DNA of 64,000 nucleotides from Gemmatimonadota bacterium (GTDB taxonomy: Bacteria > Gemmatimonadota > Gemmatimonadetes > Palauibacterales > KS3-K002). A program made the translations under genes and the position numbers. The notes beneath the pieces were generated by a model. It was not told the origin of the DNA and did no database searches. It saw nothing but the letters and a program-made list of their open reading frames with translations. Within the stretch, counting starts at the first letter, position 1. Each line of letters opens with the position of its first letter. This document shows, piece by piece, positions 7,644 to 33,034 of the stretch. The DNA is taken from NCBI GenBank assembly GCA_039586795.1, contig JBDHJS010000009.1, forward strand, positions 1 to 64,000, in the 5' to 3' direction.

Positions 7644-9377
7644 CTAGTCGCCATTTCGCTCGGCGCCGATGTACCCTTCGCGCTCAAGGTGCAGAATGAT
7701 CTCCTGTGCAGCTTCCTCAGGCGCCATCTGAGTCGTGTCGATCACGACTTCCGCGTCTTCTGGCGCTTCGTATGGATCAGAGATGCCGGTAAATTCCTTG
7801 ATAATGCCCGCCCGAGCCTTCGCGTACAGGCCCTTCCTATCGCGCTGCTCGCAGACTTCCAATGGGGTTGCCACGTGCGCCAGCACGAATCCGCCGACGG
7901 GTTCGATCATGGCGCGCACTTCCTGTCTCACCGACTCGTAAGGCGCGATCGGGGCGCAAAGCGCGATTCCGCCGTTCTTTGTTATCTCCGATCCCACGAA
8001 CCCGATGCGGCGAATGTTGATGTCTCTATGCTCCTTGGAGAACCCGAGCTCTGATGACAGATGCTTGCGAACGATGTCGCCGTCCAACAGAGTCACCGGT
8101 CTTCCGCCCATCTCGAGCAGCTTCACCAGGAGCACGTTAGCTATGGTGGATTTGCCCGAGCCGGAGAGCCCGGTGAAGAAGACGGAGAAACCCTGGCGGT
8201 GACGTGGCGGGTGGCTTCGGCGTAGCTCCTTCGCAACCTCTGCGAAGCTGAACCACTCCGGAATCTCGCTGCCATCAGCGAGCCGGCGGCGAAGCTCGGT
8301 TCCCGAGATCGATAACGGGCGCGCACCCTCTGGCACTTCTTCGTCCGGTACGTACTTATCCAGGTCCTCCACGTAGACCATCATCTTGAAGGGCACCATC
8401 GCCACGCCCAACTCATCTTCGTGCTTCTGGAGAAGCTCCTGCGCGTCGTATGGCCCGTAGAACGGTTTGCCCGACGAGTCGGAGCCGGGCCCGGCGTGGT
8501 CGCGGCCGACAATCAAGTGGGTGCACCCGTAGTTCTTTCGGATTATCGCGTGCCACACGGCCTCGCGAGGTCCCCCTAGACGCATGGCCAACGGGAGCAG
8601 ACTCAGCTTCGCCGTGTTGCGTGGATAGCGTGACTGAACCGCCTGGTAGCATCGGACCCGCGTGTAGTGGTCAACGTCGCCGGGCTTCGTTAGGCCGACG
8701 ACCGGGTGAATGAGCAGGTTCGCTTCAACGTCCTTCGCGGCGCGCAACGTGAGCTCTTGATGCGCGCGGTGCATCGGGTTTCGCGTCTGGAAGGCCACGA
8801 CACGACGCCAGCCCAGCCGAGTGAACTCCTTGCGGAGCTCGGCCGGTGTGTACCGCAACTCGCGAAAATCATAGTGAACAGGAAGCTGGAGGCCCTCGAT
8901 TCGACCGCCGACATAGTACGGATGGCTCTGGTCGAGAAGATAGGCCACGCCGGGGTGTTCGGGGTTTGTTGTCCCGAAGACCTGTTTCGCCTCCAGCTCT
9001 CGATCGGGTTGCCACACGTCTTCAATGTGGAGCGCGGCCAGCATCACGCCTTCGTGGTCGCGGAGCGCCAGACTCGAACCCGACTCGAGATCCTTCGCTA
9101 ACTCCTCTGGCACATCCAAGGTGATCGGCATCGGCCAGATCTCGCCCGTCGATAGTCGCATTTCCTTGCAGACGGGTTCGTAGTCCCCACGACTCATGAA
9201 TCCCGTCAGCGGCGAGAAGCCACCGTTTAGGATGAGCTCGAGGTCGCAGAGTTGCCGGGGTGTGAGATCCCACGAAGGCCAGTCACGTGACGTCTCATGC
9301 AGGCGAGCGGATTCCTCCATTCCGGCGATGAGATTGACAAGCGTTCCGCCATGAGGGGCAATAAGATGATCAGCCAA
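7644..9377 (-). CDS. sat/cysC: Bifunctional sulfate adenylyltransferase / adenylyl-sulfate kinase
   Basis: 'FQTRNPMHRAH', 'GRDHAG', P-loop 'GLSGSGKST', 'LLDGD'; start reassigned to TTG 9377 (LADHLIAPHGG) after an AGGAG RBS, removing the overlap with cysQ. Confidence 0.93.
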   Translation of the reverse strand: MADHLIAPHGGTLVNLIAGMEESARLHETSRDWPSWDLTPRQLCDLELILNGGFSPLTGFMSRGDYEPVCKEMRLSTGEIWPMPITLDVPEELAKDLESGSSLALRDHEGVMLAALHIEDVWQPDRELEAKQVFGTTNPEHPGVAYLLDQSHPYYVGGRIEGLQLPVHYDFRELRYTPAELRKEFTRLGWRRVVAFQTRNPMHRAHQELTLRAAKDVEANLLIHPVVGLTKPGDVDHYTRVRCYQAVQSRYPRNTAKLSLLPLAMRLGGPREAVWHAIIRKNYGCTHLIVGRDHAGPGSDSSGKPFYGPYDAQELLQKHEDELGVAMVPFKMMVYVEDLDKYVPDEEVPEGARPLSISGTELRRRLADGSEIPEWFSFAEVAKELRRSHPPRHRQGFSVFFTGLSGSGKSTIANVLLVKLLEMGGRPVTLLDGDIVRKHLSSELGFSKEHRDINIRRIGFVGSEITKNGGIALCAPIAPYESVRQEVRAMIEPVGGFVLAHVATPLEVCEQRDRKGLYAKARAGIIKEFTGISDPYEAPEDAEVVIDTTQMAPEEAAQEIILHLEREGYIGAERNGD

Positions 9378-18821: not shown

Positions 18822-20207
18822 GTGTTGGCGATGATCGCTTCGCTTTCACGCTTTGCCCTGCGTGCTGCGCTCTGGGCGATCGATCGCTTCTACGAGGTAG
18901 GCCGCGTCGGTCGAGCCGTCCCGGAAGGTCCCGTCCTCGTCATAGCCAATCACCCCAACAGCCTGATGGACGGACTCGTCGTGTTCAAGGTCGCTGGCCG
19001 ACCGATTCGACCTCTGGGCAAGGCGCCGCTCTTCGAGCATCCACTGGTCGGTCCGGTACTCGAAGGGTTGGGCGCCTTGCCGGTCTATCGGCCCCAGGAT
19101 TTTCCTGGCGAAACATGGCGCAACGAGAGGACCTTCGAGGCCGCGGTCGGGGCGTTGGAGCGCGGAGAGGCCGTGCTGATCTTCCCGGAAGGTCTCAGCC
19201 ACTCCGCGGTGCAATTGGCTCGAATGAAGACCGGTGCGGCGCGAATTGCTTTTGCAGCTGAGGAGGCGGCGGATTGGAAGCTCGGCCTTCGAATCGTGCC
19301 CATCGGGCTGACCTACCATAGAAAGCACGCGTTTCGAGGCCGGGTGGCGGCCTCTGTAGGTCGTTCCCTTGAGGTCGCTAGTTGGAAGGACAGGCGCCAG
19401 CGCGACGAATGGAGCGCCGTCGAGTCCCTGACCGATGCGATGCGTGAGGCGCTTGAAAAAGTCACCCTGAATCTTCCGACCGAGGAAGACCGAGCGCTGA
19501 TTGAGACGGCGGAGGCGCTGTATGCAGCGGAGAAGGGCCTCACCAGACCGCGGTCGCGAGAAGGGCTCGCCCCACGCCTTCCCAGACTTCAGGCGTTCGC
19601 CGAGGCGCTAGCCTGGCTCTACGTGGCCTACCCGGATGAGTATGAAACGTTGACCGCATCCGTTCGTGACTATCGCAAGCGTCTGCGGCAGTTGGGAGTG
19701 AGAGAAGGGGAATTACCAAAGCGCCTCCCGATAGCCGGCGTGCTACGCTACACCCTGTCGCAAACGTTGCTGCTTTTCGTCGGGCTGCCGCTTGCGGCGC
19801 TCGGCACGGTGGCGTGGTTTCTTCCCTACAAATCACCCCACGTTCCGCTCAGTCTCTACAAACCCGACTACGAAGTGCTGGCCACGATGAAGCTGGCCAC
19901 GGCCCTGGTCGCGTTTCCGCTGGCTTACGCGGCATGGACATTTGTCGGTTGGTGGGTCGGCGGGCTGTACGGCGCGCTGATCATCGCAGCCGTGCTGCCG
20001 TTACTCGGTGCCGCAGCCCTGCATTGGCGAGATCGCTGGAAGCGTGTTCGCGAAGACGTCCGCATCTTCGTGAATGTGGTTCGGAAGAAGACTCAACGCG
20101 ATGAGCTGGTCCGCGAACGCAGGGCGTTGGTTGAGGAATTCGATGCTGTTGCTATTCGGTGGCAGTCAGAGCGGAGGATGCGGCGCGACAGGGAGTCGGT
20201 AGGTTGA
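18822..20207 (+). CDS. Lysophospholipid / glycerol-3-phosphate acyltransferase family protein
   Basis: 'ANHPNSLMD' (HX4D), 'IFPEGLSH', 'KTGAARIA'; C-terminal TMs. Confidence 0.85.
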   Translation: MLAMIASLSRFALRAALWAIDRFYEVGRVGRAVPEGPVLVIANHPNSLMDGLVVFKVAGRPIRPLGKAPLFEHPLVGPVLEGLGALPVYRPQDFPGETWRNERTFEAAVGALERGEAVLIFPEGLSHSAVQLARMKTGAARIAFAAEEAADWKLGLRIVPIGLTYHRKHAFRGRVAASVGRSLEVASWKDRRQRDEWSAVESLTDAMREALEKVTLNLPTEEDRALIETAEALYAAEKGLTRPRSREGLAPRLPRLQAFAEALAWLYVAYPDEYETLTASVRDYRKRLRQLGVREGELPKRLPIAGVLRYTLSQTLLLFVGLPLAALGTVAWFLPYKSPHVPLSLYKPDYEVLATMKLATALVAFPLAYAAWTFVGWWVGGLYGALIIAAVLPLLGAAALHWRDRWKRVREDVRIFVNVVRKKTQRDELVRERRALVEEFDAVAIRWQSERRMRRDRESVG

Positions 20208-20225
20208 GCCGAGGATCTCGAATAA

Positions 20226-20663
20226 TCAGCTTCCCAAACAGCGATCCCGTCCGCTTTCCTCCGGCGGCGAACAAATCACGGCTTCGATAATCTCCGCCAG
20301 CTGTTGCGTCGAAAAGGGCTTCTCCAGACAGGGCCGACCGCTTTGTTCGATGAGCTCGCGGGTGCTCTCACTTACGATATCGGCTGTCACGATTATCACC
20401 CGGGAACACAGCTCGGGGCGGTTCAGCTCCATCGCCTTCCAGATCCCGCGGCCGCTGACTCCAGGCAGCCGCACATCCAGCAATATGGCATCGAAGTACT
20501 GACCGCTCTCGAGCAGTTCCAGGGCGACATCGCCAGTTGGAGCAAGAATAGGCTCGTAGCCTTGCGCGTCGCAGAACCTCTCGTAGAAGCGGCGGATCGT
20601 CGGCTCGTCTTCGATGACGAGGATTCTCGGCGGGGTAACCGTGTCTCCGCTGTAAGCGCTCAC
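20226..20663 (-). CDS. Single-domain response regulator (receiver only)
   Basis: 'ILVIEDE', phospho-Asp 'ILLDVRLPG', 'IVTAD', 'LEKPF'; GGAGGT RBS before GTG. Confidence 0.88.
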   Translation of the reverse strand: MSAYSGDTVTPPRILVIEDEPTIRRFYERFCDAQGYEPILAPTGDVALELLESGQYFDAILLDVRLPGVSGRGIWKAMELNRPELCSRVIIVTADIVSESTRELIEQSGRPCLEKPFSTQQLAEIIEAVICSPPEESGRDRCLGS

Positions 20664-20840
20664 TTTGACTTACCTCCAGGCCCGAAAAACACCCGAAATG
20701 CCACTTCGTCCACGCTAGATTGGCCAAGAATCATAACATTCTGTCTCAAAAGCATAATGTGATTCCTCGGCCACACCTCCATCATTGAGAGAAGTGCCGC
20801 CACCGCGGCGATCCGGCAAATTACCCCCTGGAGGTGTTCA

Positions 20841-20963
20841 ATGAAGTTCGTCCGTCTATTGTTCGCGATCCTCGCAATCGCCGCGCTGGGCGCCGGCTGT
20901 TCAGATCTGCCCAGTGAGCCCGGTAACTGTCCCACGATGGGGGGGCCTCACTGCAACGAGTAG
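20841..20963 (+). CDS. 40-aa lipopeptide precursor MKFVRLLFAILAIAALGAGCSDLPSEPGNCPTMGGPHCNE (below the ORF-track cutoff)
   Basis: GGAGGT RBS 5 nt before ATG; basic n-region, hydrophobic h-region, lipobox (L)GAG-C; fills the gap between the receiver and TPR genes; TAG at 20961-20963. Confidence 0.8.
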   Translation: MKFVRLLFAILAIAALGAGCSDLPSEPGNCPTMGGPHCNE

Positions 20964-20983
20964 AATAATCGCGGGGCGGGCGG

Positions 20984-22243
20984 CTACGCGCAGATGCGCG
21001 CCCGCTCCGCAATGATGCTCTGACCCACATCCTCCAGTCGCTCGGATTCTTCTCCGCTGGCTGCCAGCGGCTGGTAGGCCTCTATGCTTGCCGGCAGGTC
21101 AGCAAGCCTCGACCTAATCTCTGCTGCTTCTGCTTCGAAGCCTTTTTGCTCCGCTATCTGTAGGCTCTGGTGCAAGAACTCGCGAGCTCTGGCCTGGTCG
21201 CCAAAGGCGGAACAGCCCAGCCCAATTGTTCGATACGCGCTCGCCTGCTCGAACGGCATGACGTTCAGGCTCTTGTCGCTGAGCATGTCGTGCCTGAGGG
21301 CGTCGAATCGCTCACGGTCATCAAGCGCAACCGCGACGTCAGCCAGTCCGGTAAGCGCTCGTACGCGTGAGGCGGAGTCGTCAGACTGTTCAAGGACGAT
21401 GTCGAATGCCGCGCTTGCCGCGTCGTACTGTCCCCAGCGATAGAGCGTGACACCACAGTCCTGCAGCGCTCGTAAGCGCTGTTCCTTTGACTCGTAGCGT
21501 CTGTACGCCTCCCAACCGCAGGACGCCGCTTCGCCGGGCCGGCCCGCCGAGTCCTCAACGACCATGAGCGCGTGGTAGCAGTATCCCTCGAGCTCACGGT
21601 CGGCCACGTCCTGTGCCTCCGTCAGCGCTTTCGTTATTTGGCTTCGTGCCTCGGTAACATGACCACGTCGTAGCGACACGAGGCCCAGATTCTCCAGGGC
21701 CAGGATCGCCTGGCTTCGACTGCCCGATATCCTCGCTTTTTCAAGCTGTTCTTGATGGACGCGTTCCGCGCTGTCGAGATCGCCGAGATAACGCTCGGTT
21801 ACGCCAAGCCAGAAGAGTGCGTTTAGCTGTTCGACTACGTCGGGCAAGTGAGCCGTGATCTCGACCGAGAGAGCGAACGCCGCCCGCGCCAGCCGAAACG
21901 CGCCGAGCTTCCGATGATGAAGGCCAAGCAGCTTGAGCGCCGTCCCCAGAGCCGCCGCCGATCCGGAACTCAGCGACTCGTGAAGCTCACGAAGGAGGCG
22001 GGCATGCGGTGTATCATCGCGCCCAAACACGCGGTAGTAACGTGATCGAACCTGCGCCATCGCCTTCTCTTCCGCCGGCTCTCCGCGAGCTGCCTGCCGT
22101 GCCGCCGCCAGCACGAGCAAATACTCGACTGCGGCCCGCTCTCGCTCACGATCGTCACCCGCCTCGGCGATCGCCTCGATCAGCGGCCGCAGTTCGCTTC
22201 GCTCCCCCAGCAAATAGCTCGTCAGATCGACGGTCTCAGGCAT
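20984..22243 (-). CDS. Cytoplasmic tetratricopeptide-repeat protein
   Basis: Successive TPR-like helix pairs ('ALFWLGVTERYLGDLDSAE', 'ALENLGLVSLRRGHVTEAR', 'AYRTIGLGCSAFGDQARAR'); no signal peptide; no evident HTH. Confidence 0.85.
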   Translation of the reverse strand: MPETVDLTSYLLGERSELRPLIEAIAEAGDDRERERAAVEYLLVLAAARQAARGEPAEEKAMAQVRSRYYRVFGRDDTPHARLLRELHESLSSGSAAALGTALKLLGLHHRKLGAFRLARAAFALSVEITAHLPDVVEQLNALFWLGVTERYLGDLDSAERVHQEQLEKARISGSRSQAILALENLGLVSLRRGHVTEARSQITKALTEAQDVADRELEGYCYHALMVVEDSAGRPGEAASCGWEAYRRYESKEQRLRALQDCGVTLYRWGQYDAASAAFDIVLEQSDDSASRVRALTGLADVAVALDDRERFDALRHDMLSDKSLNVMPFEQASAYRTIGLGCSAFGDQARAREFLHQSLQIAEQKGFEAEAAEIRSRLADLPASIEAYQPLAASGEESERLEDVGQSIIAERARICA

Positions 22244-22555
22244 CTCAAATGGTCAAGTGCGCTCCACCCAGAACCTTAGAAGGATCGGCTGGGCTTGGTT
22301 GTTCGCCCGCGTTAGTCTAGCTTTTCCTTATGGAAACATCGCGCCACAATTGGCTTCCGGCGCATGTCTCGTGCGGGCAACGCATTAACTGCCCGCCAGC
22401 TCCTTCGCGTAGTGGCAGAGGCCGGTCACTATTACCGGTGGCCTTTGTTTTCGACGGTATTTCTGCCCGACCCAACAAAGTGTGGCTCAACTCACCCAAA
22501 AGCGTAACCTATTACGGTGTAGCCGATTGCGCATCCCACTTGAGCCCGGTGCGAC

Positions 22556-22570
22556 TGGCAGAGTTCGTGC
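22556..22570 (+). promoter_or_regulatory. Possible sigma54 promoter
   Basis: TGGCAGAGTTCGTGC: GG-N10-GC, with an imperfect -12 element. Confidence 0.3.
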
Positions 22571-22858
22571 CCTCTCCAGAACCGGCTGCGATCGCCGTCC
22601 TTGTTCCGGCAGCCTTTGGCGAGAGAACGGCGAGGTGTTGTGTGACAGCAGCCGCAACAGACATAGGATAGACCACAAGATAAGGCGAACCCCCGGGAGG
22701 GGAAACGGGAAGGGGCACGACAGGTGACAAGCAGATACAACGTGGCCGGGATGAGGCGGCGCTGGGGGAGTGCTCAGGATGATCCGGGCTGGACGGCTCG
22801 TGTCGAGAGGCCCGTGGCCGATCCCGAGCACGGCGGACGCCGGTTGATTACGGAGTCG

Positions 22859-23242
22859 ATGAAGGGAAGTTTTCTGGCGAAGGAGTCGATCGTCGATTGC
22901 CCGGACCCTGGGTGCCGGGGGCTGTTTCTGACTGATAAGAGGGCCATAGAACGACACGGTTCGGGAGCGCGGGTGGTCCTGCACTGCACGCGCAGGCCAG
23001 AGGAACACGACATCACGTTGGCGCTGGATCCGTATTCCAGCGAGGAGCAGGAGACTCTGAAATCGGTGCTGTTGAGAGGTGAGGCGCCGGTCTGCTCACG
23101 GTGTGGCAGCGAGCTGGAGCTTGGCTCCACCGAGTCGCCCCAGCCTTGGGCAAAAGCGGCAGATGCTCAGCAGGCGTATCATTGTCCCTGGTGTGGAGTA
23201 CGATGGGTGCCGCCGGTCGGACTCAAATTGCGAGCGGGTTGA
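22859..23242 (+). CDS. Small double zinc-ribbon protein
   Basis: ATG 22859 after GGAG; CPDPGC...CTRRPEEH and CSRC...CPWC metal-binding motifs. Confidence 0.65.
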   Translation: MKGSFLAKESIVDCPDPGCRGLFLTDKRAIERHGSGARVVLHCTRRPEEHDITLALDPYSSEEQETLKSVLLRGEAPVCSRCGSELELGSTESPQPWAKAADAQQAYHCPWCGVRWVPPVGLKLRAG

Positions 23243-23285
23243 GGCTGTGGGGATTACCGAGCATGCAAAGAAGGAGCCCGTCAAG

Positions 23286-24032
23286 ATGAAAGCAGGGAAG
23301 GCAGCGTCACAGGATCTTCGCGGCATCGCGGCGAACACAGCGCGGGATCTGGCGCTCGGTCTGAGACTAGCATCGCTGCGGATGGAGAGCTTCGAGCCGG
23401 GGCAGGGCAAGGATGCGGCCCGTGAGTTGGCCGAACACCTATCTGTGTCTGCCCGGCGCGCGGTGGAGCTTTACTATCTCGAATCGTTGACACAGGCCGT
23501 GGCGATCAGTGAAGGTCCACTCAAGGTTCGGCGCAAGAACGAGTCGGGACTCTTCGAGATGGACGAGTCTCTGGAGATACAGAAGCTGAAGAGCGATGTC
23601 CCGGGCTGCTACAACAAAGTAGGATTCGCGATGTTGGTGGAGTGCGAGCTGGAGCGAGCGCGACGTCGCAAGTCGCCAGTTTCGCTGGCCCTGTTCAAGC
23701 TGGACCCTCCGAACGAGGACCTGGTCCGTGAAGTGGCGCGGCAAGGTCGTGAGTGCTGTCGCCTACTGGATGTGCTGGGCACGTTCGATGGACGCGGTGT
23801 TGGAATGTTGTTGTTGGATACCGGTCCGGAAGGTACGCAGGTAGCCGCGCAACGGGTCCTGAGTTCGTTCCTGTCGACGATGGAGGTATCCGGCGATTCG
23901 GATTTCGGAAGCGTGCTGGTCGGCGTAGCAAGCCATCCCGAAGACGGGAGCGAACCGCGCGAACTTCTCGAACAGGCCGACGAACGTGCGGGGGGTTATT
24001 CACTGCTTGATGAGGCGGTGAAGGTCGGCTGA
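23286..24032 (+). CDS. Degenerate GGDEF-domain protein
   Basis: 'ECELERARRRKSPVSLALFKLD', 'RLLDVLGTFDGRGVGMLL', 'VGVASHPEDG...ELLEQAD'; the GGDEF position reads DGRGV; ATG 23286 after AAGGAG. Confidence 0.75.
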   Translation: MKAGKAASQDLRGIAANTARDLALGLRLASLRMESFEPGQGKDAARELAEHLSVSARRAVELYYLESLTQAVAISEGPLKVRRKNESGLFEMDESLEIQKLKSDVPGCYNKVGFAMLVECELERARRRKSPVSLALFKLDPPNEDLVREVARQGRECCRLLDVLGTFDGRGVGMLLLDTGPEGTQVAAQRVLSSFLSTMEVSGDSDFGSVLVGVASHPEDGSEPRELLEQADERAGGYSLLDEAVKVG

Positions 24033-26782: not shown

Positions 26783-29700
26783 GTGCGCCTTAGGCTAGCC
26801 TTGTCCGGCGGAATCGCCGTCTATCTGGCTATGAGTTCGCTGCCCGGTGAAGCGGGCGGCGTGTTCGGTCCTGAGTTGCCAACTCAGGACACGGCCAGAG
26901 CGCGCGCACCTGCGGCCCAGGATACCACTCGGCGGCCGCAGGCTGGGCAGGATACGACCCGGTCGGCGGCAGCTCCGCAGGACACGACATCCCGGGATTC
27001 CGTCTCCCAGGACACAGCGGCTACCACAATCGCTCAGGACTCAGTCGTACCTCCGCCTGGCCTCAAGCTCGGCCTTGCGACGTTTCCACTACCCTACGAA
27101 GTCGACTTCATCTCCCGACTACCCGACCCGGCTCAGCGTAACGTCGTCTTCCGTTCTCGGGTCAGAAACGGGGGCGATGAGTGGACGGCCCGCGTCCGCG
27201 GGAGTTCTCTGTCGCGGCGCCAGGCGATGTGGAGCGGCAGTCGGCCCATCGCGGCGCACGCCGCGCCCGAGGTCGAGGCTGAAGATGTCGGTGTCTTCGA
27301 GGACTCCCTGTTCGCCGAATTTGAATCTCCTGAAGATCTGGGCATGGTGGAAGGGTCGGACCTGCTGCCAGACGTATTTGGCGAATACGCGGATCTTGGA
27401 ATCGCGATTTCGGGGCGCGTCGAGATGGGCGGAGGCTGGAGTCGGTTCCGGCCCTGCAACGCGACGATCGTGAACTGCTCACCCAGTTTGATACCGAACC
27501 TCAAGCCCGACATCCAATTCGGGGCTCGAATCGGCGGGACGATCACCGACAGAATCCACGTCAGCGTCGACTACGACAATCGCCGAGAGTTTGACGCGGC
27601 CAATAACATCAATGTGTTCTATCAGGGGTTGGAAGACGAGATTCTCCAGCGGATAGAAGTCGGCGATGTGAGCTTTGCGCTCCCTCAAAGTCGTTATCTG
27701 ACACAGGGGATCCCGTCCGGCAATTTCGGTATCCGGGCCACCGGCCAAATGGGGCCCGTCGACTTCCAGACCGTTTGGGCTCAGCAGAAGGGCGATCTGG
27801 GCGTCAGAGAGTTGCAGCTCGGCGGAGGAGGGCAGGGCTTCGAGCAGACCTCGGTCACCGTTCTCGACGACGCGGACTACGAGAAAGGGAGGTTCTACTT
27901 CCTCTTCAATCCGAATCGGCTCGACGGCGCTCCGCATATCGACGTACAGGAGCTAATCCCCTCCGACGCGCCGGTAGACGTGCGCCCGAACTCCACGGTG
28001 AAAGTCTACCGATACGAGCCGCTGGGCTTCGGTGTGAATGCCCAGGTCCCAGAGGGTTTCATTACGGCTGTGGCGGTCGCGACCGACACGATCCTCACCT
28101 CGAGCGGGACGGACACCGTCGTGACCGACACCTTGACCGGCCTCTTCCGGCCTCTGGTTGATGGTGAGGACTACCGGCTGCATCGCAGCGGCCTCTGGTT
28201 GATCCTCCGCAATATTCTCACTCCCGCCGAAGGTTTAGCGGTCACCTACGTAGCGGCGAACGGAGAGCCGATTGGCACGTTCAACGCGGAGCAGCAATCA
28301 GATGCTCACCAGGCTGACCCCGACAACGTGCCGCCGCCAACCCTCGAACTGATCAGAGGGATCAACCAACGTCCGGGCACGGCGACCTGGACGCGCGAAC
28401 TGCACAATGTCTACCGGGTCTCGGCCAGCCCGGGCGTGGTGGAAACCAGTGTTGAGTTGATCATTTCACAGGGCCGACCGGAGGTGGGTAACACGTTCCG
28501 AGTGGCGTCGGGACAACAGCTGGAGTTCTTGAAGATATTCGGACTCGACGATGATCCCACCGACAACCTCCTCGACTTGTCGCAGGTGTTCCAGCTATCT
28601 GGAGCCGGGACGGGTGAGATCTCGGGCCCGGTTGGAACCTACATCATTCCGCCGACGCTTGAGCCCTTCAAGTTCCCGGCGCCGCTGAAGAACGTCAGCG
28701 CCGCTCTCGATGGCCAGCCGTTTCCTCTCGAGCCGGGTGACCGGAACGCGACGATCTATGATGAACCGAACGACGTCATCCGCATCGGTACGAATCTCTA
28801 CCTGTTGACGATCTCGTTCAGACAGCGGTTCGAGGGATTTCTGTCGTCGATATCGCTGGCTCCCGGGATGCGCGAGGATAGTGAGCGGCTCGTCATCGAC
28901 GACGTGGAGCTCATCCGCGGTGAGGACTACATCGTCGACTATGAGGGGGGCTTCGTCGAACTGCGCGATCCGGAACGCTGGTTCCGCGACAACCCACAGG
29001 CCAACGTGCGCGCGACCTGGGAGCAGAAGCCGCTCTTCCAGCTTGCACCGACATCGGTGTTCGGCTTGGCCGTGCGATACCTCGTGGGACGGAATGGCGA
29101 ATTCAACTTCATCGGCCTCTCACAGTCCGAGCGCACGCTGCAGACGCGACCGGAGATCGGCCTCGAGCCCAGTTCGGTGCTTCTCACCGGATTCTCGGGC
29201 CGGCTCCAGTTCGAGCCGAGCTGGCTCTCCGATGTGGTAGACGCACTGCCAGGCATCGAGGCCGAAGCGCCTTCGTTCTTGTCACTCGACGGCGAAATCG
29301 CTCTTTCCAATCCCAACACGAATACACAAGGTGCCACATATGTTGAGGATTTCGAGGGCGGTACGGGCTTCAATCTGTTGCTCAATAGTCGGGCCTGGCG
29401 TCTCGGCGCGGTCCCGTCGACCACGGCCGGTGCCGAGAGCGTCTTGCCCCTGGTCATGAACGAAGAGAATGCGGCGGAGCTGGTTTGGCAGGACCAGTTT
29501 TCCACCGAAGACGGCAGCGTCGCCGGGCCGATTCCGGCAGGGGACATCGACGACGAGCTGCGGCTTCAGGGTGGGAGGGGCACGACGACCGAGCCCGTGA
29601 TGACGATGAGCCTGCGGATGCCGGAAAACCGTCAGTTGTCGCCCAATCCGAATCCACCGCCGGGTCCGGCGTGGGCGTCGATCACGAACCCCATATCCAT

Positions 29701-32700
29701 CAGCGGCCAGGACTTCACCACCATCGAGTTCCTGGAGTTCTACGTCGCGACCACACAGGAGGTCGCAGAATCCCTCACGCTGGTTCTCGATCTCGGCACG
29801 GTCAGCGAGGATGCTTTCGCCATCGACTCGCTGGGCAGCCCATCAGGAATCTCGGAATTGAACCGCGAGGTTGTCCCCCCAGCGGTTTGGAGCAACCTGG
29901 ACGATACCGGCCTATGGGGAACAGGATGCGAAGCGGTTCCAGGCCAGATCACCTATCCGCTGGGTGACGTCGCAGCCAACTGCACGCGCTCCAACGGGAT
30001 TGAGGATTCGGAAGACCTGAACCAAAACAGCATCCTAGATCTGGAAGAGCGCTTCTTCCGCTACACAGTGCCGCTGGCACCAGGCAGCCGGTACTACGTG
30101 CGTGACGCCAACGATTTCGGTGGCGCAACATTCAGGCTGTACCGTGTCCCGCTGCTGCAGGCCGACCATCAGGAGCGCGTCACGGAAGCCGAATTCCAGA
30201 ACGTTCGCCAGCTGAGGATAACTGTCACCGGGCAGCAAGACGCGCGGTTGCTCCTCACTCGCATGCGGTTCCTCGGATCGCGGTGGCTGAAGCGAAGTCA
30301 AACGGGACTGCAGCAGGGCCTGGTCGATACCACGACGGTGGCCAACCCCAACGCGCTGGTTCAGGTCGGCCCGATCAGCACTCTGGACCCGCGATATGTG
30401 TCGCCGCCCGGCGTAACCGAGGAGGCGGCTAGCCAGAGTGACGAGTTCAACCCGACGGCTCAGCAGGTCAACGAGCAGTCACTGGCCATCAGCTTCGAGG
30501 AGCTCGGCGCCGATGAACGCGCGGAAGTCTACCTGCAGTACGCGCAAGTTCCGCGCGACTTCCTCACCTATCGAAGCCTGCGTCTTTGGGCCATGGGGAT
30601 CGAGGGCCCCTGGGGGACCGGCGGTGAACCGCTGCGCTTCATGGTGAAGCTCGGCGAGGATGCGAGCAACGTGTATCTGTATAGGACAACGTTGCCCGCC
30701 GTGCCTCCGGAAGCGACGGGGCAGGAGCTTGCGCAGTTCTGGCTGCCGGAAATCCGCATCGATATGAACGTCTTCATCGCGCTGCGGACTGCCGCGGAAG
30801 AGATCTTGCTCTTGCAGGGTGGGCTACCGCAGGACAGCGTGTTGGAGCTGTGGGATGTAGACGTCCTCGAGGACGCGGATAGCAGTTACGCGGTTTTCAT
30901 CGGCCAGAGGTCACGCGCGGCCAATCTAGCAGCGGTGCGGCAGATATCGCTGTCGATCCACAACAGCGGGACACAGACAGTATCCGGGGGCCTGTGGGTC
31001 AACGACATCCGGCTCGATGCGCCCACCGATCAGACTGGAGTCATCGGGCGCTTCGACCTGGACCTCCGCGCGTCCGACGTCCTCGACCTGAGCTTTGGGT
31101 ACTCGACGGAGAACCCATACTTCCGGCAACTTGGCGAACACCCGAGCTTCGGTTCGAGCATGCAATACAACGTCGGCGGCGCGCTGCGGATGGGCAAGTT
31201 CGCGCCGGAATCCTGGCGACTCAACATGCCGCTTACGGTCGGGTACACGAATGCTTCCTCGCAGCCCGTGCTGTTGCCTTCGATGGACATCTCCGGCGAG
31301 CGCCTTCCGCGGCTGCGCACCGCAGCAACCGAGGGCCTGAGGGTGGACCTTCAACTGAATCGGCAACCCGGTGGTGACAGACCATTCATGGGTTGGTTCC
31401 TGGACAATTCGGCTCTGCGGGTCACCTACGAGGACAGGAGGTCGCGAACGGCGCGTTCAGAGACAGAGGCGGATGGCTACTCCTTCAACTACAACTTTAG
31501 GTCAGATGTCGCTGATCTCTCGTTCCCGTTCTTTCCCGGAAAAGACTGGCGGTTCCGATTGACGCCGCTGAGCGTTCAGTTCAACGCCAACTACATCGAT
31601 ACTAAATCCGTAACAAAGCGCTTTGCGGAGATCATCTCGCTTCCGGAAGACTCGTTGGTCCAGCCGATCAAAGCGCTTGACAACCGCTTACAGATGAACA
31701 CCGGCATGAACTTCGAGCTGGTCCCGTCGTTGACCGGCAACTTCGCGTTGGTGCAGGCAAGAGAGATCGCTCCAACGGGATTTCTGGTGAAAGGAAATCA
31801 AGCTCGTGAGCTGATCAATGCTGAACGCACGGAGTTCCTGGGGCTCGATCTGGGGTGGATGACGGGTCAGGACATCAACATGAACTGGACCTGGCGCCCA
31901 AACGTGACGACCTGGCTCACGCCTCAAGCCTCGATCGATTCACGATTCCGCTTCACTCGCGGCGCCTCCTACGTCGTCGAGCTGGCGGGCGATACCGTTT
32001 TGACAAGTGATTTCGATAACTCCCGAGCGCTGCGAGCGTCGGTCGGCTTCAATCTTCCTGTCATGCTCCGCACCATGTTCGGACTAGAAGCCGGCGGAGT
32101 GCTCGGTGGTTTCATGGATGTCATGGATCGGCTCGACTTGGTCTCGTTTGGCTGGACAGGGACGCTGGCTTCTCAGTACCAGCGTCAGGATGCCACGCCC
32201 AGCGTTAAGTACCGATTTGGCCTCGGCGACTTCCGTAGTTTCCTGCTTCAGGAAGGCGACACCGCGGCTCGTGTCGCGGATACTGAGGGCATGAACATCT
32301 CCTCGGGCTTCAGATTTCCTGGGGGGCTGGGCCTGGTTGTCGACTACGTGAACAACAACTCTCTTGTCTGGACGCCCGTGACCCGAACCTTGAACGATGG
32401 CGTGACCTGGCCGAACATCACGCTCAACTGGGCGCGCTTGCCTGTGCCCGCCAGCTTCGAGCCATGGGTGGCGGCCGCTAGCTTCAGGGTCGGGTACTCC
32501 GTGCGCAGCGCTAGCAGTCTCGTCCCGCGCGCCGACCAGCTCCGCGAGAGCGAGGTTGTGACGATACCGCTGAGCTTCAACTTGGCGTTGACGACCGAAT
32601 GGTCTCTGTCTTATACCCTCGACTGGAGCGAGGAGGAGCGCCTGGACCCTGTGGGCCGAACTCAGGGCGACCGGCGAAACCACACAGTGCAGATAACCGG

Positions 32701-33034
32701 ACGATTCAGCCCGCTGTCCCAGCAGGGAAGGTTCCGGCACCCGATCAGAATCTCGCTCCGCTTTTCGCAGGACAAGCAGGACCAGTGCCGCCAGCTTGGA
32801 AACCCGTTCGAGCCGTCGGATGGGACGGCTGCCCAAGCGCTGTGTGAGCCTTTCATCGATTTGCGGATACGGCGCGTTGACCTGACGGTAGGTACCGACA
32901 TGCCGCCGTTCGTTTTGGGCTTGCAGGGCTCGTGGCGTGACACGCAGAGCCAGATTGGCCAAAGCCCTGGCAACACCCAGCTGGAATTCTCATTCTTTGG
33001 GCAGTTCCTGCTGGAGACCGGAGAGATTCGTTGA
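26783..33034 (+). CDS. sprA: SprA-like giant outer-membrane beta-barrel protein (T9SS translocon homologue)
   Basis: 2083 aa; 'GLEDEILQRIEVGDVSF', 'YVEDFEG', 'LDLGTVSED', 'EDLNQNSILD', 'NEQSL', 'LWVNDIRL' resemble SprA conserved blocks; long amphipathic beta-strand C-terminal part. Confidence 0.75.
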   Translation: MRLRLALSGGIAVYLAMSSLPGEAGGVFGPELPTQDTARARAPAAQDTTRRPQAGQDTTRSAAAPQDTTSRDSVSQDTAATTIAQDSVVPPPGLKLGLATFPLPYEVDFISRLPDPAQRNVVFRSRVRNGGDEWTARVRGSSLSRRQAMWSGSRPIAAHAAPEVEAEDVGVFEDSLFAEFESPEDLGMVEGSDLLPDVFGEYADLGIAISGRVEMGGGWSRFRPCNATIVNCSPSLIPNLKPDIQFGARIGGTITDRIHVSVDYDNRREFDAANNINVFYQGLEDEILQRIEVGDVSFALPQSRYLTQGIPSGNFGIRATGQMGPVDFQTVWAQQKGDLGVRELQLGGGGQGFEQTSVTVLDDADYEKGRFYFLFNPNRLDGAPHIDVQELIPSDAPVDVRPNSTVKVYRYEPLGFGVNAQVPEGFITAVAVATDTILTSSGTDTVVTDTLTGLFRPLVDGEDYRLHRSGLWLILRNILTPAEGLAVTYVAANGEPIGTFNAEQQSDAHQADPDNVPPPTLELIRGINQRPGTATWTRELHNVYRVSASPGVVETSVELIISQGRPEVGNTFRVASGQQLEFLKIFGLDDDPTDNLLDLSQVFQLSGAGTGEISGPVGTYIIPPTLEPFKFPAPLKNVSAALDGQPFPLEPGDRNATIYDEPNDVIRIGTNLYLLTISFRQRFEGFLSSISLAPGMREDSERLVIDDVELIRGEDYIVDYEGGFVELRDPERWFRDNPQANVRATWEQKPLFQLAPTSVFGLAVRYLVGRNGEFNFIGLSQSERTLQTRPEIGLEPSSVLLTGFSGRLQFEPSWLSDVVDALPGIEAEAPSFLSLDGEIALSNPNTNTQGATYVEDFEGGTGFNLLLNSRAWRLGAVPSTTAGAESVLPLVMNEENAAELVWQDQFSTEDGSVAGPIPAGDIDDELRLQGGRGTTTEPVMTMSLRMPENRQLSPNPNPPPGPAWASITNPISISGQDFTTIEFLEFYVATTQEVAESLTLVLDLGTVSEDAFAIDSLGSPSGISELNREVVPPAVWSNLDDTGLWGTGCEAVPGQITYPLGDVAANCTRSNGIEDSEDLNQNSILDLEERFFRYTVPLAPGSRYYVRDANDFGGATFRLYRVPLLQADHQERVTEAEFQNVRQLRITVTGQQDARLLLTRMRFLGSRWLKRSQTGLQQGLVDTTTVANPNALVQVGPISTLDPRYVSPPGVTEEAASQSDEFNPTAQQVNEQSLAISFEELGADERAEVYLQYAQVPRDFLTYRSLRLWAMGIEGPWGTGGEPLRFMVKLGEDASNVYLYRTTLPAVPPEATGQELAQFWLPEIRIDMNVFIALRTAAEEILLLQGGLPQDSVLELWDVDVLEDADSSYAVFIGQRSRAANLAAVRQISLSIHNSGTQTVSGGLWVNDIRLDAPTDQTGVIGRFDLDLRASDVLDLSFGYSTENPYFRQLGEHPSFGSSMQYNVGGALRMGKFAPESWRLNMPLTVGYTNASSQPVLLPSMDISGERLPRLRTAATEGLRVDLQLNRQPGGDRPFMGWFLDNSALRVTYEDRRSRTARSETEADGYSFNYNFRSDVADLSFPFFPGKDWRFRLTPLSVQFNANYIDTKSVTKRFAEIISLPEDSLVQPIKALDNRLQMNTGMNFELVPSLTGNFALVQAREIAPTGFLVKGNQARELINAERTEFLGLDLGWMTGQDINMNWTWRPNVTTWLTPQASIDSRFRFTRGASYVVELAGDTVLTSDFDNSRALRASVGFNLPVMLRTMFGLEAGGVLGGFMDVMDRLDLVSFGWTGTLASQYQRQDATPSVKYRFGLGDFRSFLLQEGDTAARVADTEGMNISSGFRFPGGLGLVVDYVNNNSLVWTPVTRTLNDGVTWPNITLNWARLPVPASFEPWVAAASFRVGYSVRSASSLVPRADQLRESEVVTIPLSFNLALTTEWSLSYTLDWSEEERLDPVGRTQGDRRNHTVQITGRFSPLSQQGRFRHPIRISLRFSQDKQDQCRQLGNPFEPSDGTAAQALCEPFIDLRIRRVDLTVGTDMPPFVLGLQGSWRDTQSQIGQSPGNTQLEFSFFGQFLLETGEIR
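26885..27046 (+). repeat. Low-complexity Q-D-(T/S) peptide repeats in the SprA-like N-terminus
   Basis: QDTA, QDTT, QDTT, QDTT, RDSV, QDTA, QDSV within about 54 aa; DNA units CAGGAY-AC(N). Confidence 0.8.

Follow-up and report, generated by a model that had tools for sequence, protein, structure and literature searches.

Known peptide-receptor systems and the Gemmatimonadota locus

Signalling by peptides through cytoplasmic receptors has been described in Bacillota and in the mobile elements of these bacteria (PMC10075063, PMC11343458). The genomic signature of the RRNPP family is a propeptide of 10-100 aa encoded as the direct neighbour of a tetratricopeptide repeat (TPR) receptor of ~250-500 aa, with export by the Sec/SPI route at the strict level and Sec/SPII accepted at the relaxed level (PMC10075063). 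In the RRNPP/RRNPPA family, processed peptides of 5-10 residues are re-imported and bind their receptor, and the closest system to the one described here is Rap-Phr, the branch that lacks a DNA-binding domain and acts on Spo0F and ComA. This is a cassette for a TPR protein, a 40-aa lipopeptide and a stand-alone receiver, found in the window, the stretch of 64,000 nucleotides analysed from the Gemmatimonadota bacterium assembly GCA_039586795.1 (contig JBDHJS010000009.1, positions 1 to 64,000).

An initial annotation of the sequence had read these genes as a peptide-signalling triad, and the open reading frame (ORF) list and a Pfam scan found all three to be genuine at the coordinates it gave. 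They are the receiver gene (20226-20663, reverse strand, 145 aa, Pfam PF00072), the peptide gene (20841-20963, forward strand, 40 aa, MKFVRLLFAILAIAALGAGC-SDLPSEPGNCPTMGGPHCNE; 7-orthologue alignment, purifying selection and class-wide counterparts) and the TPR gene (20984-22243, reverse strand, 419 aa; Pfam, structure model and fold searches). As annotated, the peptide and TPR genes lie tail to tail with stop codons 20 nt apart, and the peptide and receiver genes are divergent, with a gap of 177 nt. In this gap is a putative operator (20721..20757, forward strand), whose two half-sites, TGGCCAAGAATCATAA and TGTCTCAAAAGCATAA, have a 21-bp period and stand 120 nt before the peptide start. Comparative sequence data make it very probable that the TPR protein, the lipopeptide, the receiver and a pseudo-receiver/AraC regulator are inherited as one system together with a DNA site. 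With some reserve, we lean towards the reading that the three window genes are what is left in cis of a circuit with four parts, controlled by a peptide and working like Rap-Phr.

With a 40-aa propeptide and a 419-aa TPR receptor 20 nt apart, the window lies within the RRNPP ranges of size and adjacency, and on its predicted lipoprotein-type export it corresponds to the relaxed level of the RRNPP signature (PMC10075063). Like Rap, the TPR protein is soluble, has ~400 aa and no helix-turn-helix (HTH), and combines a TPR superhelix with preceding N-terminal helices; its putative partners are receiver-type proteins, as in Rap (PMC3035606). As in Rap-Phr, the adjacent gene encodes a short propeptide, here with predicted export, in which C-terminal units are repeated in some cases (PMC11343458). 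Unlike Rap-Phr, the system has a two-membrane host, a precursor of lipoprotein type in which a Cys pair is frequent, genes placed tail to tail, and a dedicated pseudo-receiver/AraC regulator with its operator. RapH has an invariant Trp17 and a catalytic Gln47, the latter position being Gln or Glu in Rap phosphatases (PMC3035606). Neither residue has a family-wide counterpart in the TPR proteins, in which no Gln column spans the family, and residues 1-143 of the window TPR contain no Trp. The sequence affinity to Rap is that of a generic TPR protein and no specific ancestry is shown, and on these grounds the system is not classed as a member.

NprR-NprX and AimR-AimP likewise have a TPR receptor beside a propeptide with a C-terminal motif (Z 18.6 and 14.9 against the window TPR model); however, those receptors bind DNA themselves, whereas the window TPR has no HTH. 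In the case of the enterococcal sex pheromones, which are ligands of PrgX, a large lipoprotein supplies the ligand with its signal peptide. They share with the predicted system a lipoprotein precursor feeding a cytoplasmic TPR-like receptor, but in the precursors of 40-80 aa described here it is the C-terminal tail that is marked by repeats. LGN/Pins (GPSM2), whose superhelix has been solved with bound peptides, is the top fold and profile match (Z 24.3; E-value 8e-25); it is a eukaryotic scaffold, and the match is limited to the TPR part (model 94-387), with no shared function implied. No description of the cassette was found in the literature, searched mostly outside subscription journals; the supplementary candidate lists of RRNPP_detector could bear on this.

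Recurrence of the cassette in the class

Distant TPR relatives, recovered by profile search as full-length matches at ~20% identity, are present in at least 70 of the 251 class genomes, with 0/60, 0/31 and 0/4 in three families; the genome counts are lower bounds because seven candidates per genome were scored. From 91 places listed by the profile, 86 were examined (three truncated and two duplicate frames were dropped), and 83 loci, including the window and two close orthologues, were analysed. One of these loci is from an unpublished genome (G170), as is one genome of the AraC tally (G082), and the conclusions are independent of both.

The initial annotation had staked its reading on a small lipopeptide ORF recurring next to TPR homologues, and such an ORF does recur: a convergent lipoprotein ORF of 30-100 aa lies within 300 nt at 70 of the 83 TPR loci (67 within 100 nt), with three additional peptide ORFs recognized by inspection. 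The same peptide filter, applied as a control to the host genome, retained 27 of 2,222 long ORFs, that of the window included, and an earlier filter demanding no cysteine had likewise given a convergent ORF with a lipobox at the majority of loci. The TPR/peptide pairing recurs in five other families, which, together with the empty sites described below in 15/15 non-carriers, led to the rejection of chance or mere synteny as an explanation.

In the canonical order, the TPR gene is forward, the peptide gene reverse, and the AraC and receiver genes forward. The usual gene divergent from the peptide encodes a protein of 265 aa with an AraC-type HTH (64/83 loci), and an AraC relative is present in 69 of the 70 TPR-positive genomes class-wide. 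A stand-alone receiver related to that of the window was found at 36 or more of the 83 loci, a lower bound because the flanks covered 1.5-2 kb; 33 of these loci also have the AraC gene and three belong to the host family. Thus the triad as first annotated stands in its TPR-peptide pairing and in the membership of the receiver, but the commonest third gene of the cassette is the pseudo-receiver/AraC gene, which is here in trans.

Lipopeptide precursor

Conservation and an excess of synonymous over replacement changes indicate that the 40-codon ORF is, as annotated, a true gene. It was found in 6/6 other genomes with a TPR orthologue (65-78% identity), and its Shine-Dalgarno sequence GGAGG (20830-20834, forward strand) is also present in six orthologous loci. 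Comparison of the five orthologues (of seven) without an insertion gave 112 identical, 160 synonymous and 98 non-synonymous codon pairs, with 72/51/220 differences at codon positions 1/2/3. The window precursor consists of a predicted signal (1-19), Cys20, a Pro-rich linker and the invariant tail C30-P-x-x-G-G-P-H-C38, and in the seven aligned orthologues G-C-S-D and C-P-x-x-G-G-P-H-C are invariant. The consensus lipobox has Leu, Val or Ile at -3, where the window family has Gly or Ser instead, and the lipobox is thus imperfect; the basic N-terminus, the hydrophobic stretch and the invariant Gly-Cys point to a lipoprotein. The peptide has no Pfam match, and the search for paralogues in the host genome gave long frames matching at the level of the signal peptide only. 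A non-coding RNA was also considered and rejected, no Rfam match at an E-value up to 1 being present within 20000-23200.

Class-wide, the mature parts of the precursors have 18-69 residues, with the Cys followed by a linker, which contains Pro in 56/70 precursors, and then a Gly/Ser/Asn-rich tail. Two additional cysteines are present in 49/71 rows and none in the remainder, a pairing that suggests a disulfide. Six of the 70 precursors have 2-5 tandem copies of a C-terminal unit of 7-9 residues, such as HTIGSGN x3 and DYVNPLG x5; RRNPPA propeptides have 1-4 repeated pheromones (PMC11343458). Tail types go with TPR clades in a quick tree of 82 rows, and single genomes can hold several cassettes with differing tails. 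At three loci of family f3 (L158, L194, L214) the tails are acidic with NNN at the end, and the AraC gene is upstream of the TPR gene, not beyond the peptide. A further lipoprotein-like ORF, of 47 aa and with a Shine-Dalgarno sequence, is convergent on a serine-hydrolase-like gene on contig C58 of G000, near 7850-8000.

TPR protein and stand-alone receiver

The window TPR protein matches TPR_12 (PF13424, E-value 1.2e-15), and it was found to be soluble and HTH-less, as annotated, by Pfam, hydropathy and the structure model. There is no HTH family among the four Pfam hits and no HTH in the TPR model; no hydrophobic segment was found, the highest 19-residue Kyte-Doolittle mean being 1.16 (0.25 near the N-terminus). 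The model is all-helical (predicted local distance difference test score 93.6, predicted template modelling score 0.89), with N-terminal helices at 16-93 (16-27, 31-53, 59-73 and 79-93) preceding approximately seven TPR helix pairs (96-382) and a capping helix (397-418).

The best prokaryotic fold matches are Rap proteins, namely phi105 Rap (Z 21.7, root-mean-square deviation (rmsd) 5.6, 291 aligned), pLS20 Rap (Z 20.6; model 38-371 on chain 12-364, rmsd 7.8) and RapH (Z 20.5), followed by MalT domain III (19.9), NprR (18.6) and AimR (14.9). Comparison with Rap, NprR and AimR, which the initial annotation had called for, shows a fold compatible with Rap, but LGN/Pins ranks higher both by fold and by profile, so the fold is that of a general TPR superhelix. 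The supposed likeness to Rap-Phr is retained in the Rap-compatible fold and, in some relatives, in tandem C-terminal motifs as in Phr-type precursors; a Rap-type catalytic Gln is not found throughout the family. Matches in the ESM Atlas were limited to TPR clusters from Gemmatimonadota and two from Ignavibacteriota. Some TPR variants of ~600 aa (L163, L211, L213, L216; P0031, P0035, P0038) have 170-200 additional N-terminal residues, possibly an added sensor domain, and in G012 the TPR gene is in two halves 356 kb apart (L009 and L026), one beside an N run, which is likely a scaffolding artefact.

The window receiver (Response_reg at 14-126, E-value 8.5e-17) has, when aligned with the cassette receivers, all canonical residues: E18-D19-E20, D63, T93 and K115-P116. 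The Spo0F/CheY-type set of acidic pocket, phospho-Asp, Thr/Ser switch and Lys-Pro is therefore complete.

AraC regulator and operator

The N-terminal 100 residues of the AraC regulator match receiver structures (PhoP, E-value 9e-5); in this receiver-like domain the central Asp is kept, and the acidic pair and the Lys are absent. HTH_18 (PF12833) was matched in 20/20 aligned AraC members, including both host paralogues, which are on other contigs of the host genome (C55 14285-15094 and C23 122438-123259). The window retains the operator repeat, but the locus itself lacks an AraC gene.

This putative operator is a direct repeat of TGYCGCAAAA with a 21-bp period, located between the peptide and AraC genes and in most cases 100-130 nt ahead of the start of the peptide gene. 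AraC-family proteins bind repeats of 21-bp period. With a matrix whose seed was chosen by eye and whose training set was the same upstream regions, 38/69 of these exceed 15 bits at period 21, against five or fewer at the other periods from 17 to 26 and a maximum of 11.9 bits in shuffles. The window repeat is the top match of its genome (23.3 bits) and is kept in 7/7 carriers. The next match, on contig C105, precedes an unrelated small HTH operon.

Near 90350-90410 of contig C105 of G000, three A+T-rich direct repeats with a 21-bp period precede a membrane-protein/small-HTH operon. An AraC paralogue of the same genome (L230) is divergent from glutamine-amidotransferase-like and secreted dipeptidyl-peptidase-like genes at C55 15207-18166, a pair (named from reading the sequence) that is present in non-carriers too. 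A separate pseudo-receiver/AraC paralogue (L239 in G024, family f5) is present in all 45 genomes sampled from one family, irrespective of the cassette.

Distribution in the host family

A TPR orthologue is present in 7/31 genomes of the host family, and a receiver orthologue in the same seven, with one further genome having a 44% match elsewhere. As the flanking genes are syntenic as well, non-carriers were examined, and the triad site is empty in 15/15 of those fetched: the acyltransferase and zinc-ribbon genes face each other across 247-414 nt in 14 genomes and ~1,560 nt in one. From this gene content, TPR, peptide and receiver are gained or lost together.

The unlinked regulator follows the same pattern. 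AraC paralogues with at least 38% identity are present in 6/7 triad genomes and 0/24 others of the family; there are also two weak matches (27-34%), one a different paralogue and one in the own cassette of G013, a host-family genome with a full cassette including the peptide. Both paralogues are at fixed sites, which are empty in 4/4 and 3/3 non-carriers checked. A single clade of carriers was rejected by the approximately unbiased (AU) test (p-AU 0.0097), for which six proteins encoded nearby in 22 genomes gave the tree and a fast search the constrained one. Loci were therefore lost, or gained, jointly on more than one occasion.

Proposed circuit and alternative explanations

In the circuit favoured here, one of the two AraC paralogues (C55 14285-15094 or C23 122438-123259) would bind the repeat and switch on the peptide gene. 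The precursor would be exported and lipid-anchored, with a C30-C38 disulfide loop, and a protease would free the tail, which would re-enter via a peptide ATP-binding cassette (ABC) importer and bind the TPR groove. Import of the tail and its binding by the TPR protein are rated as probable, and the host genome has five family-5 solute-binding proteins as importer candidates. Binding would alter the hold of the TPR protein on the AraC regulator, in an anti-activator mode like that of RapF on ComA, while the phosphorylatable receiver would be an accessory input or a second target, and the loop would report the accumulation of the cell's own or its neighbours' peptide. The initial annotation had the Spo0F-like receiver as the target; this receiver is a genuine cassette member, but the AraC regulator is the likelier target of the TPR protein. 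Granted that binding takes place, the chances are about even between a peptide acting between cells and a report on the cell's own envelope.

Several points weigh against this circuit. The lipid anchor and the outer membrane separate the precursor from its cytoplasmic receptor, and no dedicated protease or importer gene is among the flanking genes scanned. Ten of the 83 loci have no peptide; at three of these (L176, L219, L220) the AraC gene is 49-58 nt behind the TPR stop, leaving no space for a peptide gene. The tail of the host family is invariant, not hypervariable, and class-wide its similarity declines with TPR distance just as that of the signal peptide does, so that clade-specific tails reflect shared descent and are not proof of co-evolution. 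In the peptide-TPR covariation proposed as a check, the tail follows TPR identity to the same degree as the signal peptide does, and no sign of accelerated tail (pherotype) divergence was seen in the class-wide comparison, kin having the same labels. A search of the host genome for further strong operator pairs gave no second one, and hence no output regulon. One family has an AraC paralogue in 45/45 genomes, with TPR or not, and G006 has the triad and operator with neither AraC paralogue found, in an assembly also missing both neighbouring genes. By fold, LGN/Pins are the top matches (Z 24.3 and 23.8; Foldseek likewise gives LGN first), and the sequence profile has an E-value of 1e-24 to LGN versus 9e-7 to one Rap. 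Furthermore, the peptide filter (tuned after the first hits), the hidden Markov models and the DNA matrix all derive from the very loci to which they were applied.

The alternative that survives best, though we consider it unlikely, is a cell-internal envelope monitor, in which the TPR protein would bind precursor or fragments accumulating when export, lipidation, disulfide formation or periplasmic proteolysis change, and would then adjust the AraC regulator; it uses the same parts and the same binding, with no cell-to-cell signal. A lipoprotein-type precursor, not freely secreted, in a two-membrane cell agrees with it, as do the paired cysteines, the family-invariant tail and the single-copy chromosomal site among the envelope genes LpoB, acyltransferase and LptFG and the lack of a match in the phage records searched. 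However, tandem tail units, clade-specific tails and several cassettes with different tails per genome would be superfluous for a generic reporter.

More doubtful is the version of the initial annotation in which the TPR protein is a Rap-type phosphatase of the adjacent receiver, inhibited by the peptide. The phosphorylation residues of the receiver are complete, and no other regulator remains in cis in the window. In the TPR protein, Q64 and E58, invariant in 18 close orthologues, are on the third N-terminal helix of the model, in the general position of RapH Gln47 (PMC3035606). Yet the receiver is at just 36/83 loci, 33 of them also with the AraC gene, the Gln of two families is missing from the receiver-bearing loci of another family, and there is no linked cognate kinase. 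It is still less probable that the lipopeptide acts as a small effector in the membrane, made as an output of the AraC regulator, with the TPR protein sensing something else and regulating the AraC protein. The operator points toward the peptide gene, and TPR and AraC genes remain adjacent at three peptide-less loci, but several family f8 loci keep the TPR-peptide pair in the absence of a neighbouring AraC gene, and constant tail-to-tail spacing and repeated short tails better suit a ligand. A pair like those of ribosomally synthesized and post-translationally modified peptides (RiPPs), which too have multi-core precursors, with the TPR protein binding or maturing the precursor of a modified peptide, is very improbable. 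In its favour, the TPR protein matches the RiPP-associated HaaT, also a TPR protein, weakly over the full length (E-value 8e-11, 40.8 bits); against it, this score is far under the 1,125-bit cut-off, 0/59 downstream neighbours scanned is a modifying enzyme, and an exported lipoprotein precursor exits the cytoplasm.

Beyond the favoured Rap-Phr-like circuit, it is proposed only tentatively that the cassette is a two-membrane peptide-pheromone system that arose independently of RRNPP, in which an envelope-displayed, lipid-anchored and often disulfide-looped micro-precursor would be clipped and would cross back to a cytoplasmic TPR receptor, which would release a kinase-independent, self-amplifying pseudo-receiver/AraC activator. 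As part of this conjecture, the circuit may have survived splitting over three loci in the Kutchimonas lineage.

Other features of the locus

A G+C-rich hairpin (20971..21010), a possible shared terminator by its folding energy (-32.5 kcal/mol, z -2.6), spans the TPR stop codon. The hairpin at this stop has z < -2.6 in 5/7 orthologous loci and is absent from one; the terminator scan missed it because it has no T-run, and for the peptide gene the window scan gave neither a sigma-70 promoter nor a terminator with a T-tail. A CCGAA-N6-CCGAA direct repeat (20681..20698), just 5' of the ribosome-binding site of the receiver, is present in the window and eight related loci and is kept in the host family. 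Four runs, with 5-8% of the locus words in short contigs, covered part of the receiver and promoter region and only the first 9 nt of the peptide ORF, and are uninformative on transcription.

A foreign island was rejected, as the triad has a G+C of 0.52-0.67, resembling its flanks, and tblastn against 50,697 phage records gave no match. TPR proteins 56-67% identical occur in Gemmatimonadota records, including Candidatus Kutchimonas denitrificans, and the host belongs to the Kutchimonas group of this phylum. The envelope genes nearby (LpoB, acyltransferase and LptFG, by Pfam) include LptFG and LpoB genes that fit a two-membrane host, and a 2,083-aa SprA-like outer-membrane protein (26783-33034, forward strand) adjoins lptFG. 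On the same strand, a 172-aa protein (22724-23242) with several Cys pairs and weak zinc-ribbon matches is syntenic in carriers and non-carriers, and a GGDEF-like protein (23079-24032; Pfam 27.6 bits) without the GGDEF motif, probably non-catalytic, has 65-87% identity in 27/31 family genomes.

Implications

Beyond gene order, the locus adds an operator kept without its adjacent regulator, and three unlinked loci jointly lost, or gained, more than once. It supplies named proteins, a 21-residue ligand candidate (mature residues 20-40) and a 37-bp candidate site, and raises the testable question of the route of a lipid-anchored peptide to a cytoplasmic receptor. If the independent origin were true, the split circuit would be a natural minimal test of the binding partners. 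If the proposed circuit is true, a counterpart in at least 70/251 genomes of a Gram-negative class would extend peptide-receptor signalling across the membrane divide.

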